This document shows, in pieces, positions 17,398 through 39,432 of a DNA stretch of 64,000 nt. Origin of the DNA: Verrucomicrobia bacterium UBA1629 (GTDB lineage: Bacteria > Verrucomicrobiota > Kiritimatiellia > RFP12 > UBA1067); assembly GCA_002321305.1 (NCBI GenBank), contig DCMF01000098.1, forward strand, positions 28,976 through 92,975, in the 5' to 3' direction. Both the position numbers and the translations under genes were made by a program. Below the pieces are notes generated by a model. That model was not told the origin of the DNA. It searched no databases and was given only the letters and a program-made list of their open reading frames with translations. Within the stretch, counting starts at the first letter, position 1. Every line of letters begins with the position of its first letter.

Positions 17398-17472
17398 TTG
17401 AGCGTGAGATTAAAGGGACGCCTGTTGTTGACATGAGAGACGCGAGGGGCTTGAGGGACATGAGGCCCAATC
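17398..17472. repeat. Family D palindromic element (GTGAGGGAC / GAGAGAC motifs), intergenic between recA and the C10 peptidase gene.
   Basis: gagcgtgagattaaagggacgcctgttgttgacatgagagacgcgaggggcttgagggacatgagg. Confidence 0.6.
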
Positions 17473-17477
17473 GCCTT

Positions 17478-20400
17478 TCACTCGATTTCTTTTATTCCTT
17501 CCTTGGCTTCGGCCTTCCAGAACTGCGCGCCGCCGGTCGTGATGACGTTCGTCGTCCAGACCAGGGCGGCGTCCGCCGCCGCCTGTTCCCACGCGCCTGT
17601 CGTGACGAAGCCCTTCGTCAGGTCGTCCGTCGCCAGGAGGCGGTAGTGGCACCACGGCACACGGTTCGTGATCTCCAGCGTCCATTCGGTTTCGGAGACA
17701 CGCGTAATCGCACGGAACGCGATCGGCGTCGGGTAGTTCGTCGTGACGGCAGGCGGGTCGGGCTCCGGCGGATCGACCTTCTCGACAATCGTCAGCGTCG
17801 CCGTCAGGGGGGTGATCGGCTCGTAGTTGGCGGCATCGCCCGTGAACGTCGCCGTGACCGTGTAGCGGCCGACTTCCGTCTTTTCGTTGCCCGGCTGGCT
17901 GTCGCCAGCCTCATCGGCGATCGTATAGGAGACCGTGACGCCCGTCGGCAACGTGCCCGTGATCGCCAGCGACTTGGGCTTGCCGTCATAGGTAAACGTC
18001 TGGCTCGCGAACGCGACGCCGCTCATGTCGTAGACGGCTTTCGCGATTGTCCAGCGGATCGTGCGCGCCGCCGTCGTGCCGTCCGCCCACGCAAAGCCCG
18101 CCTTTGGCGTCGCCGTCGCCGTGTAGGCGCCCGCGTTCGTCTGCGGCTCGCACGCGAAGACGTAGCCGTGGTCGGACGAAAGGCAGACCTTCGCCGTGCC
18201 GTCGTAGACGAAGTTCGTCACGACATTCGCGATGGCCGTCGTCAGGGTCTCGCCGCCCGGCACCGGCTCATAAGTCTTCCCGTTGTCCGTGACCTTGCCG
18301 TCCGCACCGAGCGCGTCGCTCCAGACGAGCAGCGTCTCGCTGTCGCCCGTCACAGCGAGGCCGACGTCACCCGTCAGGTCGTGCGTGAAGTTGTGCGCCG
18401 AGTCGGCGAGCTGCGCGGCCGTGCCGGAGAAGCCCGCCGCGACGCAACCAAAGACGTTCGACGAGACCGTCACGCCCGGCACGTAGCCGACGCGACCGGT
18501 GAACGGCGAGACCAGGAGCAGCGGGGACTTCGTCGCGACATAGAGATTGTTGGGGCTTCCGTCAGTCGCCGTGTTGTCCGTCGCGACAAAGCCGCCGCCA
18601 ATCTCGACCGTCGACTCGTTGCCGATGTAGACGGCACCGCCGAGATCGGACACGCACCCCGTCACCGTGCCGCCCAAGAGCCGCACACGGCTGGACGAGT
18701 CCGCCGCCACCGCGCCGCCGCAGCTGTAGCGCGCGCCTCGGCTCGTGCAGTTGCGGATCTCGGAACCGTCCAGCATCGTCAGCGCACCCTTGTAGACCCT
18801 GATCGCACCGTCCGCGCGTTCGGTGCCGCGCGCCACGTCCCGCACCACCGCGCCGGCGCCGAGCGTCAGTTCGCCGTACTGCACGTCGAAGAGAACGCCC
18901 GTGCCGAAGCGGCCTGCGTCCAGCTCGCCGGAGACCGTCACGTTCTGAACCGTCAGCGCACCGTTCGTCAGCACGGAGAACCGGCACGTCGCCGCGCGGG
19001 AAACGACGAACGGCCCGCCCGCGCCGCTCGTCAGCGTGACGCGCGTCGTCACCGTCACGTCGTCAGCCAAGGCCGTATCCGCCAGGACTTCAACCGTCGC
19101 ATCGCCCGCCACCACGCCGAACGCATCCGCCAAGGAGCCGTAGCAGAGCGACGTGCCGCCCGACGTGACGCGCGCGACGGCGACCGACGGATCGACGGGC
19201 TTGATGCTGCCGTCATCCTTTTTCCACACGAGCGTCTTGTAGTCGTCGCTCGGCACGGCCGCGAGATCCGCGTTCGTGTCGCAGAAAAAACGCGCGCACG
19301 ACTGAAGGATCTTCGCATGGTCGGTAAAGTTCGCCTCCACCGCAAGGAATGCGTTGCCGACCGTCGTGACCGAACGCGCGGCCGAACCGGCACCTCGGAT
19401 GCCGACGGCGCTGCCCGTCTCCAGAAGGCCGGACAGGATGAGCGTGTGCGCCGCCGAAGCCGGCACCCGATAGTAGCTGATGTCGTCTGCGGACGTCTTG
19501 TTCGCGGACGACACAATCACGTTGCCCTGAATCGTCAGGTAGCCGGACAGCCGCACCATGGCCTCCTTGCCCATGTAGACGCCGCCGCCCGCGCTCCGCG
19601 CCCGGCAGTTCGTGATGACCACGCGATCTCGCAAGACGAGTTCGCATGCGCTGTCCTTGAGGTAAATCGCGCCGCCGCAGGAACCCGCCGTGCCGTTGAC
19701 GCAGCCGTCGAAGACGACCGCGCCGCCAGCCGAGCCGACCGTGGCCTTGCCGGACAGCACGGCAATCGCGCCGGAATAGGTGTTCGTGCCCTCGATGTTC
19801 GTGAACGACGTCTCGCCGCCGACCGTCAGTTCGCCGCCGTTGACCAAGAAAAGCGAATCGCCCGTGTAGCCGTCAACCGCGAGATCGCGCACCGTCAGCG
19901 TCGCGTTCGCGCCGACGTCGAAGCCCGCCGCCGCGCCGAACGCGCCAATCGTCACGCCCGCCGTCTCGCCGCGCAGCGTCAGGTTGCCCGTGACCGCAAA
20001 ACGCTTCGTCAGCTCCAGTCCCGCAAGATTGCGGATGACGATCTCGCCCGTCGTGCCGACGGTGCCGGACGTCTGCATGTTCGCGTACTTCTCCAGCAGG
20101 CGGTCGAGCCGCGCCGCCGTGTTCGTCGCGCCGGAAGCGTCCACGAAGTAGCCGGCAGATTCGCTCAGCGGCACGGGAATCTCGCCCCACTTCAGGAAAA
20201 TCTTGCCGCCTTCCGCAACGGCGATGCCGCGCGTCTCGCCGAGCGTGTCGCGGACGTTGGAGATCCGCGCCGCGCAGTTTGAGGCCACGAGGGAATCGCA
20301 GACCGCCGTGCCGAAGACGCCGTTCACGTCCGGCGCGGCCGCGCAGTCAATCGCAAAGCCGTTCGTCAGCTCCGCCGCAAGCACAAAGCCGTCCGACGCC

Positions 20401-38199: not shown

Positions 38200-39285
38200 T
38201 CACATCACCTTCATCTTCGGCAGGTCCTGGATGTCCACAAGCCCCACGATGCGGCCTTCCGCGTCGCAGACGGGCAGGTCGTCGATTCGCATCCTCTCGA
38301 AGATCTTCAGCAGCTCCGCCGCGTAGGCGTCGTCATGGACGAACTTGGGCGATTTCGTCATATGCTCGGCGACAGGCGCCGAGAGAATAATCGAATAATC
38401 GAATCGCCGAATCGTCGAATCGGGGGAAGTCTCCGAACCCGACGAAGCCCCCGTCTCTTCATTCATTCGATCATTCGACCATTCGTTCATTCGATTATTT
38501 TCCCGACTCATCACCCGCCGGAAGTCGCCGTCGGTGAAGATGCCGAGAAGCCGGCCCGCCGCATCGGCGACGACCGCCGCGCCGCCCTGCGCCTTCGTCA
38601 TCGCCATCACGGCCTCCATCACCGTCGCCGTCGGCGCGACCTTCGCGAGCCGGTCGCCCGTGCGCATGATGTCCGTCACCTTGAGGACAAGCGCACGGCC
38701 GATCGCGCCGGCCGGATGGTTCGCCGCGTAGTCCGCAAGCGAGAACTTCTGCGCGTCGATCATCACCATCGCGAGCGCGTCGCCCATCGCGAGCGTCGCC
38801 GTGACCGAGTTCGTCGGCGCCATGCCGAAGGGACACGCCTCCTTGCCGCAGGGAATCTCCACGTGCAGGTCGGCGAGCCGCGCGAGCGTCGACTGCGGAT
38901 TGCCCGTCAGCGCAATGACCTTCAGCCCGTGGCGGCGAATCGCCGGGATGAGCCGCACGACTTCCTCGGACTCGCCGCTGAACGAGAGCGCAATCAGCAG
39001 ATCGCGCGACGACACCATGCCGAGGTCGCCGTGCATCGCCTGCACGGGATTGAGGACGATCGAGCGCGTGCCCGTCGAGGCGAAGATCGCGCTCATCTTC
39101 TCCGCGACGTGCAGGTTCTTGCCGACGCCCGTGACGACGACGAGTCCGTCGTTCGCCACGCAGTCCCGCATGAGGCGGATGGCCGAGACGAACGATGCGC
39201 CGAGCGAGTCGCGGGTCTTCTTCAGACCCTCGATCTCGATGTCGAAGACTTGCTTCGCGCGCGTGATCATCTCGGTTTCGGTCAT
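38200..39285 (-). CDS. kdsD: Arabinose-5-phosphate isomerase (KdsD/KpsF type, SIS plus tandem CBS domains). It carries a family B in-frame insertion between the CBS domains.
   Basis: SIS region VVVTGVGKNLHVAEKMSAIFASTGTRSIVLNP...ALSFSGESEEV and CBS pairs. The insert is [45 protein letters not shown]. Confidence 0.85.
   Translation of the reverse strand: MTETEMITRAKQVFDIEIEGLKKTRDSLGASFVSAIRLMRDCVANDGLVVVTGVGKNLHVAEKMSAIFASTGTRSIVLNPVQAMHGDLGMVSSRDLLIALSFSGESEEVVRLIPAIRRHGLKVIALTGNPQSTLARLADLHVEIPCGKEACPFGMAPTNSVTATLAMGDALAMVMIDAQKFSLADYAANHPAGAIGRALVLKVTDIMRTGDRLAKVAPTATVMEAVMAMTKAQGGAAVVADAAGRLLGIFTDGDFRRVMSRENNRMNEWSNDRMNEETGASSGSETSPDSTIRRFDYSIILSAPVAEHMTKSPKFVHDDAYAAELLKIFERMRIDDLPVCDAEGRIVGLVDIQDLPKMKVM
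38382..38504. repeat. Family B element in frame in kdsD.
   Basis: gagagaataatcgaataatcgaatcgccgaatcgtcgaatcgggggaagtctccgaacccgacgaagcccccgtctcttcattcattcgatcattcgaccattcgttcattcgattattttcc. Confidence 0.8.
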
Positions 39286-39342
39286 TTCGGTTGGCGATTA
39301 AGAGTTATCGGTTGTTGTCATCTGTTTTTGACTGAAGGGGCG

Positions 39343-39432
39343 TGAGGGACGCGAGAGACAAGAGACCGAACCGTCTCTCATTGTCGCTCTTGTCTCTTTG
39401 TCTCACGTCTCTCATGACTCTCGCGCCCCTTT
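39343..39432. repeat. Family D palindromic element, intergenic between kdsD and pta.
   Basis: aaggggcgtgagggacgcgagagacaagagaccgaaccgtctctcattgtcgctcttgtctctttgtctcacgtctctcatgactctcgcgcccctt. Confidence 0.75.

Follow-up and report, generated by a model that had tools for sequence, protein, structure and literature searches.

We analysed a 64,000-nt window of contig DCMF01000098.1 (assembly GCA_002321305.1, Verrucomicrobia bacterium UBA1629), "the window" meaning this whole stretch of DNA, and describe here family D, a family of short GC-rich repeats mostly arranged as imperfect palindromes, whose copies lie both between genes and in frame inside housekeeping genes. All genes in the window are on the minus strand. 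According to Pfam domains and the source-contig calls, their order is murC, infB, nusA, the gene for RNase HII, a C5-methylase/XamI-like pair, htpG, queC, recA, a C10 peptidase gene, uvrA, rho, coaE, a cluster of secretin, PilM and Amuc_1100-1102-like genes, kpsF, pta, ackA and two giant open reading frames (ORFs). Relatives of UvrA place the host in a gut/rumen lineage of Kiritimatiellia known solely from metagenome-assembled genomes (MAGs), and the window is 100% identical to ENA ERZ808281 NODE_34 and to the Logan assembly of SRR1747049. It contains four inverted pairs of D arms, two in uvrA and two intergenic, together with two lone arms:

8454-8480, minus strand: lone D arm, C-rich on the plus strand, in the N-terminal region of infB
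17430-17465, no strand assigned: lone D arm of four units, G-rich on the plus strand, with no inverted partner
24069-24141, minus strand: short D palindrome, arms 24069-24104 and 24106-24141, in frame in uvrA (amino acids 532-556)
25191-25263, minus strand: second short D palindrome, more decayed, in frame in uvrA (amino acids 158-182)
38082-38187, no strand assigned: long D form, left arm 38082-38117, degenerate right arm at about 38143-38185, centre of about 25 nt
39330-39436, no strand assigned: long D form, arms 39330-39365 and 39401-39436, with additional central units

In family D the homology unit is an arm of 36 nt in which a 9-nt unit of the form GACnnGAGn is repeated four times, and the arm is mostly present as an inverted pair. 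The consensus of 18 aligned arms reads GACGTGAGG GACGTGAGG GGCGTGAGG GACGAGAGG and terminates in ..GAGGCC; unit positions 1-3 and 6-8 are almost invariant in these arms, and the third unit usually starts with GGC. A scan for at least three consecutive 9-nt units, each matching at least 6 of the 7 fixed positions (GRCNNGAGR), detected nine arms in the window, whereas 20 shuffled windows gave zero. Of the 36 runs in all loci examined, 30 consist of exactly four units, a number that no run exceeds, and the order of the units is kept. Exact copies of the 15-mer GGGGCGTGAGGGACG lie at 24076 and 39337, and copies that differ at a single position at 17446 and 38098; if up to three mismatches are allowed, there are 27 matches, compared with 10.05 +/- 2.6 in shuffled sequence, and TGAGRGAC occurs 13 times where 4.2 occurrences are expected. 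The elements span 73-107 nt with 36-nt terminal inverted arms and take two forms: in ORFs, a short form of about 75 nt whose arms abut, and in spacers, a long form (about 107 nt) that has a centre.

The intergenic copies lie between the C10 peptidase gene and recA (17430-17465, in the 100-nt spacer from the peptidase stop at 17478 to the recA start at 17377), between kpsF and the Amuc_1102-like gene (38082-38187, between the kpsF stop at 38200 and the Amuc_1102-like start at 37999), and between pta and kpsF (39330-39436, between the pta stop at 39441 and the kpsF start at 39285). All of these neighbours are co-directional and none is convergent. An earlier, sequence-only reading of this DNA had placed the motif at 17398-17472, 38081-38190 and 39343-39432 and in uvrA, and the motif is present at every one of these four places. 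The in-frame copy that it described in uvrA is there, but there are two such copies rather than one; the third intergenic element is likewise there, but with limits better set at 39330-39436; and the intergenic setting, described as convergent or tandem, is tandem at all three sites, on the minus strand. Its principal claim, that one element family occurs both intergenically and in frame inside ORFs, is borne out. The further copies whose absence would have spoken against it were found as the second uvrA pair and the lone infB arm, at non-orthologous sites, and in several species-level relatives.

Sequence shared outside the repeat units indicates that D copies are related as whole elements. 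The same pair of non-repeat ends, TTTTTGAC(T)TGAGG and, at the opposite side, CTCA(A/C)GTCA, is found at unrelated loci (uvrA, the pta-kpsF spacer and the second uvrA slot of the related locus L003; related loci are given L numbers throughout), and a centre ..CTCTC(A/G)TTGTCGC.. is common to both long intergenic copies. Because non-repeat ends at unrelated loci and the centre of the two long copies are shared, whole D elements appear to have been copied. The four coding D copies have one orientation relative to the gene, and 39330-39436 and its orthologue in L083, judged from the 3' end, have the same gene-relative orientation as the coding copies.

The near-perfect dyad symmetry attributed to the elements in the sequence-only reading was not found. 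Arm-to-arm complementarity is about 53-78%, reaching 77-78% in the best copies, and at 17398-17472 the second arm is absent. Arms of the same element are identical at 24.7 of 36 positions and arms of different elements at 24.8 +/- 3.1 of 36, so the palindromy amounts to two family arms placed head to head, and compensatory upkeep of a D hairpin is ruled out by the same equality. Single-stranded DNA folding, compared with shuffled sequence, is significant for 24062-24148 (z -4.3) and 39325-39441 (z -5.2), weak for 38075-38195 (z -1.5) and 25180-25290 (z -1.25), and no stronger than in shuffles for the single arm at 17398-17472 (z -1.1), so that fold prediction for each copy, which had been proposed as a check, agrees with a hairpin at two places and fails at the lone arm. 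The arms themselves are purine-rich, with no internal stem-loop, self-complementarity or GTAG/CGTC-tagged hairpin. A canonical G-quadruplex as the reason for the four units is also ruled out: none of the 18 arms matches four G3+ tracts separated by N1-7, and an arm has 0-3 G3+ tracts.

Between positional orthologues, the core of the unit (G1 A2 C3 / G6 A7 G8) is 10% divergent, compared with 35% at positions 4, 5 and 9 (p = 8e-5), in a test biased by the way arms are detected. The slow core is seen in both coding and intergenic copies and is independent of codon positions, subject to the same detection bias. This hints that the 9-nt unit is perhaps a recognition site for whatever copies it.

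Family D is one of several short-unit families that interrupt coding sequence in the window. The interrupted genes and the in-frame elements of the other families in uvrA, coaE and kpsF are as follows:

22471-25734, minus strand: uvrA, 1087 amino acids, with four in-frame inserts (two D and two CGAAT-family palindromes)
23450-23591, minus strand: CGAAT-family palindrome (8-nt unit) in the uvrA linker between the nucleotide-binding domains (slot 4), where L003 has a D element
24758-24905, minus strand: CGAAT-family palindrome in uvrA slot 2
29397-29576, minus strand: GGTTTGG-family palindrome, in frame in coaE
38380-38505, minus strand: CGAAT-family palindrome, in frame in the linker between the SIS and CBS domains of kpsF

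In an alignment of 41 UvrA sequences, the window protein has four additional segments, and 24-28 of the 41 sequences are empty at each of these positions. Projected on UvrA of Bacillus stearothermophilus (2r6f), the inserts fall between chain residues 164|164, 259|262, 465|475 and 611|630, which are loops and the linker that joins the two nucleotide-binding halves; the D element at 24069-24141 falls in loop 465-475. The uvrA genes of 37 of 40 relatives match as a single-frame, stop-free translation, and the other three have one or two stops at or near low-similarity match ends. Because the frame is kept, the inserts are probably translated; splicing or bypass would leave most of them free of frame constraint. 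Judged from the reading frames, the coding D inserts are thus predicted to be read through as low-complexity peptide. The 75-nt D consensus has no stop in four of six frames and is closed only where TGA is read in the G-rich arm, and in the long intergenic forms most frames are closed. At the KpsF linker slot, 120 homologues carry over 60 different inserts, which include a D-like peptide (VRDESDKRDAGDMSDVSG) and inserts with 1-9 copies of a GIGSDRV repeat (21 nt).

The spacer upstream of uvrA (25760-26420) is complex: arrays of the 13-nt unit AAGGCTAGAAGTT (25857-25961) are followed by a hairpin of 213 nt in which CATTCCCGCTGCGCGTCCATTCGTCCGTCG is duplicated (25990-26203) and by 19-nt pyrimidine-rich arrays (26222-26420). 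Hairpins like that of this spacer are also present in L002 and L003.

The window is collinear with L001 and L003 at 85-96% identity, and practically all breaks in the alignment are short-unit arrays or hairpins. Besides D, the families found at these slots are CGAAT, GGTTTGG, GGAAGAAG and TGAGRGR. The sequence-only reading did not recognise the shared use of hypervariable slots by at least five short-unit families, D among them. The occupancy of individual slots is as follows:

recA-upstream slot: lone D arm in the window; orthologous D half-element in L001; TTCAGAT 7-mer array in L003
uvrA slot 1: D in the window; GGTTTGG-family hairpin in L003; empty in most relatives
uvrA slot 3: D in the window; orthologous D in L003; GGAAGAAG in L001; CGAAT in L005; empty in L002 and L004
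uvrA slot 4: CGAAT in the window; D in L003; GGAAGAAG in L001
coaE slot: GGTTTGG in the window; CGAAT in L003 and L084; GGAAGAAG in L001, L083, L085 and L087; short in-frame D in L089; empty in L002 and L013
kpsF-Amuc_1102 spacer: D in the window; orthologous D in L087; different arrays in L083-85 and L089
pta-kpsF spacer: D in the window; orthologous D in L083-85; GGAAGAAG-family palindrome in L087; empty (29 nt) in L089
ackA-pta junction: empty in the window (about 40475-40478, where stop and start overlap); filled in L083-86

Empty sites in relatives, and the empty ackA-pta junction of the window itself, indicate that the copies were inserted and do not descend from ancestral gene sequence. 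D copies are found in at least five species-level lineages, and a D-like copy is found in the distant L041. The D copies occupy non-orthologous sites and are present or absent among relatives, and they survive only in co-directional spacers and in protein loops or linkers. In the GGAAGAAG family, homology between sites extends over the whole element, with the non-repeat centre included.

Turnover is also seen between close strains. L083, L084 and L085 are 99.2-99.6% identical and differ by changes of 7-24 nt in unit number, and at the coaE slot (L083 19586-19790) a full GGAAGAAG palindrome is swapped for a CGAAT palindrome among these three. D thus shares permissive slots with other short-unit families, in which arrays slip and whole modules are exchanged between close strains.

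In a stringent search for hairpins, with 20 or more of 24 positions paired, the window gave nine and shuffled sequence none, and 853 kb of Kiritimatiellia loci gave 34, mostly in the closest clade. This 20-of-24 window scan replaced 7-mer seed clustering of hairpins, which is too noisy at 65% GC. A polarity rule considered as a signature of mechanism, with a purine-rich left arm in every case, fits about 25 periodic-arm hairpins of about six families and was rejected, being broken by the hairpin at 41701-41780 and by the CGAAT-like murC arms of L102. The segment 41701-41839, between a giant ORF and ackA, consists of a hairpin with 7-nt periodic arms (TGTCCGC / CGGACAG) followed by a lone CGAAT-family arm (41791-41839). 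In this TGTCCGC hairpin (41701-41780) the pyrimidine-rich arm comes first, the reverse of the other families, and the TGTCCGC family in L083-85 shows a difference of one 7-nt unit between strains.

[quoted passage not shown] In such a scheme D would be copied by a trans-acting activity, a transposase or recombinase, encoded outside the window; proximity-biased copy-paste, by template switching or ectopic conversion between slots, would be another possible route. Near-neutrality of insertion at a loop, or at an insert already in place, might explain why slots are reused. Hairpin-prone DNA may also be fragile and repaired from other copies, and hairpin DNA is perhaps itself a preferred target. 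The element would then be selfish or neutral rather than adaptive, and would be continually reshaped by slippage, deletion and recombination.

Several observations weigh against this reading. No transposase, REP-associated tyrosine transposase (RAYT) or recombinase Pfam domain is found in the large ORFs of the 64-kb window, and no autonomous insertion sequence with D ends is found in the window or in the approximately 1 Mb of related loci scanned for D arms. No target-site duplication is recognisable at 24069-24141, 25191-25263, 39330-39436 or the L003 copies, where the flanks instead prolong the palindrome, in a comparison in which divergence between filled and empty alleles blurs the exact limits. 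Arm identities within and between elements are equal, so no D copy seen here can be shown to be young. At the ackA-pta junction of L083-L086 (8667-8811), the 145-nt insert runs from a CGAAT-family left arm to a D right arm and a further D-like arm, and this CGAAT-left/D-right pair is chimeric and unable to form a hairpin. The lone infB arm at 8454-8480 is likewise paired with an array of another family (TGAGRGR 7-mers, 8360-8437). Such chimeric pairs, together with the distant pairing of arrays in murC described below, are not predicted by insertion of a ready-made palindrome. The limits of the coaE slot vary by about five codons between families, unlike a clean cut-and-paste event, and this variation rules out nucleotide-precise site-specific integration at that slot. 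Finally, GGCGTGAGGGACGNGAGRGAC matches 11 loci in JGI metagenomes, none of them of this lineage, the matches being unrelated contigs with GAGGGAC-type arrays.

The JGI contigs L098 (549-641), L097 (6-306) and L093 have 9-nt arrays of the GAGGGAC type; the L098 array is palindromic and lies between two genes, and L093 has dozens of differing minisatellites packed together. A scan of a viral collection for GGCGTGAGGGACGNGAGRGAC gave no match, and a protein search with concatenated D-encoded peptides gave 118 candidates of which none scored, a result that is uninformative about other hosts.

A different kind of paired arrangement is found in murC:

5339-5616, minus strand: GGTTTGG-family array at 5339-5413 and reverse-complement array at 5557-5616, in two separate murC loops

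The sequence between these arrays is genuine conserved MurC (PG.HN..NA...LG....F.GVERR). In five lineages, with five unit families, the arrays of slots A and B are reverse complements of each other and are separated by 120 conserved coding bases:

Window: unit GGAGGTTTG, arm match 36/40
L102: unit ATTGTTCG, arm match 30/37
L103: unit GGTTGCAR, arm match 26/27
L104: unit GGTTGCGG, arm match 40/42
L105: unit GAATGTTY, arm match 27/34

Among 85 distinct combinations of MurC A and B peptides, complementarity is higher within than between proteins, and 20 combinations are above the 95th percentile where about four are expected. There are also mismatched A/B combinations, and some in which A is filled but B is empty. 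AlphaFold2 predicts both MurC slots as low-confidence coil around a confidently predicted helix-strand unit. The murC pairing and the chimeric pairs point to local inverted copying by template switching or to a pair-wise mechanism.

The main alternative, possible though on the unlikely side, is that the arrays arise in place, through slippage expansion, an inverted copy made by intramolecular template switching, and ectopic gene conversion (a "satellite library"), in which case differing families at one slot would be rapidly diverged orthologues. This explanation accounts best for murC, where the reverse-complement A and B arrays belong to five different but step-wise related families and complementarity is in excess within proteins. 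It also fits the unit-number differences between near-identical strains, the 1-9 GIGSDRV copies in KpsF, the frequent presence of the same family in adjacent slots of one gene, and the left arm of the L087 GGAAGAAG palindrome, which merges with the C-terminal codons of ackA. However, slippage in place does not readily yield D arms fixed at four units in a kept order with non-repeat ends common to unrelated loci, nor a non-repeat centre of the GGAAGAAG family conserved at different sites. In addition, D arms show no arm-to-arm homogenisation, the family swap at about 99% flank identity is discrete and not a gradual divergence, and the non-matching and half-empty MurC cases depart from paired copying. 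Dispersal of a non-autonomous repeat and origin in place are not mutually exclusive.

A more doubtful proposal is that a dedicated mechanism writes arrays of short units, in inverted pairs, at or near particular fragile or hairpin sites, where it can also exchange one family for another. It could take the form of templated addition of repeats at both 3' ends of a break, or of hairpin-targeted cassette exchange. The covarying murC arrays, the chimeric pairs and the swap between strains of about 99% identity would then be the signatures of this mechanism and not the debris of ordinary MITE decay.

We regard it as improbable that the elements are functional cis-acting signals kept by the host, such as protein-binding arrays or hairpins that stabilise mRNA or terminate transcription, as in REPs. 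The D core is 3.5-fold slower to change between orthologues than positions 4, 5 and 9, every intergenic copy has co-directional neighbours, a setting that the heptamer repeats of Xanthomonas and Nostoc also prefer (PMC4692102), and the coding copies share their gene-relative orientation with 39330-39436 and its L083 orthologue, all of which would suit a signal. On the other hand, the same slots are empty or hold unrelated families in relatives, copies lie inside uvrA, coaE and infB, arm pairing is not kept beyond the family consensus, and the test for core conservation carries the detection bias given above. No terminator-like site or T-run is present at 38082-38187 or 39330-39436 (scan of 37200-39700), Rfam covariance models have no match at the gathering threshold across the window, and the arms hold no canonical G-quadruplex. 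A tRNA scan of the window found nothing.

Very improbable is the explanation that the inverted arms are substrates of site-specific or homologous inversion, forming intragenic or intergenic invertons that switch gene states. Inverted repeats of 27-42 nt do surround the 120-nt murC coding segment in five lineages, and intragenic invertons are documented in gut bacteria (PMC10028968), but the short D arms abut with nothing between them to invert, the window has no invertase gene, the inverted murC segment is not consistently stop-free and its inversion would destroy an essential enzyme, and the targets are housekeeping rather than surface genes. An artefact of assembly or binning is scarcely credible even for a window derived from a metagenome assembly, given that an identical 10,967 nt including both long intergenic D copies is found in a second assembly made by another pipeline, that diverged orthologous D copies occur in MAGs of other studies, and that reading frames are kept.

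Among known systems, D is closest in behaviour to RPEs, which comprise several families inserted in frame in unrelated genes, where they add peptide wherever the fold tolerates it (PMC10969869), and for which no dedicated transposase is known (PMC3733652). Both are small palindromes of multiple families that occur intergenically and in frame in housekeeping genes. The likeness drawn here is one of behaviour: an RPE measures about 100-150 bp and has a conserved sequence specific to its family plus a small stem-loop tagged with CGTC, whereas D has four 9-nt units and no internal hairpin, and the RPE host has a reduced intracellular genome whereas the D host is a free-living gut bacterium of the Planctomycetes-Verrucomicrobia-Chlamydiae (PVC) superphylum. 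In Kiritimatiellia, unlike the situation in RPEs, families replace one another at one slot, and arrays may flank host coding sequence.

REPs and REPINs consist of inverted doublets and decayed singlets (PMC3116915, PMC3733652), and D resembles them in its inverted doublets with a spacer and decayed singlets (four doublets and two lone arms), in its co-directional spacers and in its vertical inheritance over species-level divergence (PMC3116915, PMC3337134). However, a REP is itself a hairpin of 20-40 nt with a GTAG (or CGTC) tag (PMC3733652), whereas a D arm cannot pair with itself, and REPs are mostly extragenic whereas D is also found in uvrA, in infB and in the coaE of relatives. The comparison with REP elements made in the sequence-only reading consequently does not extend to membership: D is not a REP, as it has no hairpin or tag within the arm, is not confined to extragenic sites, and is accompanied by no RAYT gene or domain seen in the 64 kb.

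With MITEs, D shares a size below 300 bp, the absence of coding capacity of its own, terminal inverted repeats (36 nt in D), dispersal and presence/absence polymorphism, and in-frame fusions of MITEs with host ORFs are known (PMC10969869; Coxiella QMITEs, PMC5896051). D differs in having no recognisable target-site duplication or parent insertion sequence, in its internally repetitive ends and in the pairing of arms from different families, and it is a MITE in a loose sense only. Cyanobacterial short tandemly repeated repetitive (STRR) sequences are likewise dispersed short-unit arrays of variable copy number. The G-rich heptamer repeats (GGGNATC) of Xanthomonas and Nostoc prefer four units and co-directional spacers (PMC4692102), and have in common with D the 7-9-nt units, the short dispersed arrays and the variable copy number; they are direct arrays that form G-quadruplexes and are scarce in coding sequence, whereas D forms inverted pairs, occurs in genes and does not have four G-tracts.

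Two further systems combine inverted repeats with coding sequence. Mitochondrial genes of Nematomorpha have inverted repeats of which both arms are translated (PMC6649704); their arms are perfect, up to 284 bp long and part of conserved protein regions, whereas D arms are imperfect inserts in dispensable low-complexity loops. Invertons of gut Bacteroides have intragenic inverted repeats around short coding segments (PMC10028968), as in the murC arrangement, but there is no evidence of inversion or of an invertase here, and most D copies have no segment between the arms. No published account of elements of this kind in Kiritimatiellia or Verrucomicrobia was found.

Until now, palindromic repeats lying in frame within housekeeping genes were a curiosity of Rickettsia and a few reduced or unusual genomes. 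The same outcome is now seen in a free-living gut lineage of the PVC superphylum, with slots in surface loops of the essential proteins UvrA, CoaE, KpsF, MurC and IF-2. What is new is the combination of short-unit arms, families competing for slots, turnover at about 99% identity, and complementary arrays bracketing conserved coding sequence; the sharing of slots between families, the swaps at strain level and the covarying arrays around conserved sequence are likely to surprise specialists. If the pattern is genome-wide, the lineage would offer a natural system for studying how selfish or slippage-prone DNA enters essential proteins without lethality, how low-complexity loops are born, and which enzyme, if any, copies the elements. 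Should a dedicated mechanism prove true, it would be a new kind of mobile or hypervariability system acting within essential genes. The inserts also inflate and fragment protein families and may mislead orthology and domain calls in MAGs, and they can serve as strain-level markers.

Other features of the window were recorded alongside the D copies. One of them is a lone array of the TGAGRGR family:

29006-29114, no strand assigned: lone TGAGRGR 7-mer array of about 15 units, directly upstream of the rho start codon

This array makes the 5' leader of rho a C/U-rich repeat. Between the coaE start and the secretin stop lies a segment of about 300 nt (29806-30124) that is absent in L001, L003 and L083, where the two genes abut; it has non-periodic inverted repeats of 31 nt (29835-29865 and 30010-30040) and resembles an ordinary MITE-like insertion. 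At 10902-13047, the C5 cytosine methylase gene adjoins a gene for a XamI-type restriction endonuclease, with no connection to the repeats seen. The genes at 30125-37999, which encode the secretin, a TSP3-repeat protein and Amuc_1100-like, PilM and Amuc_1102-like proteins, constitute an Akkermansia-type pilus-like locus, and the secretin gene has a hypervariable segment at 31138-31321.

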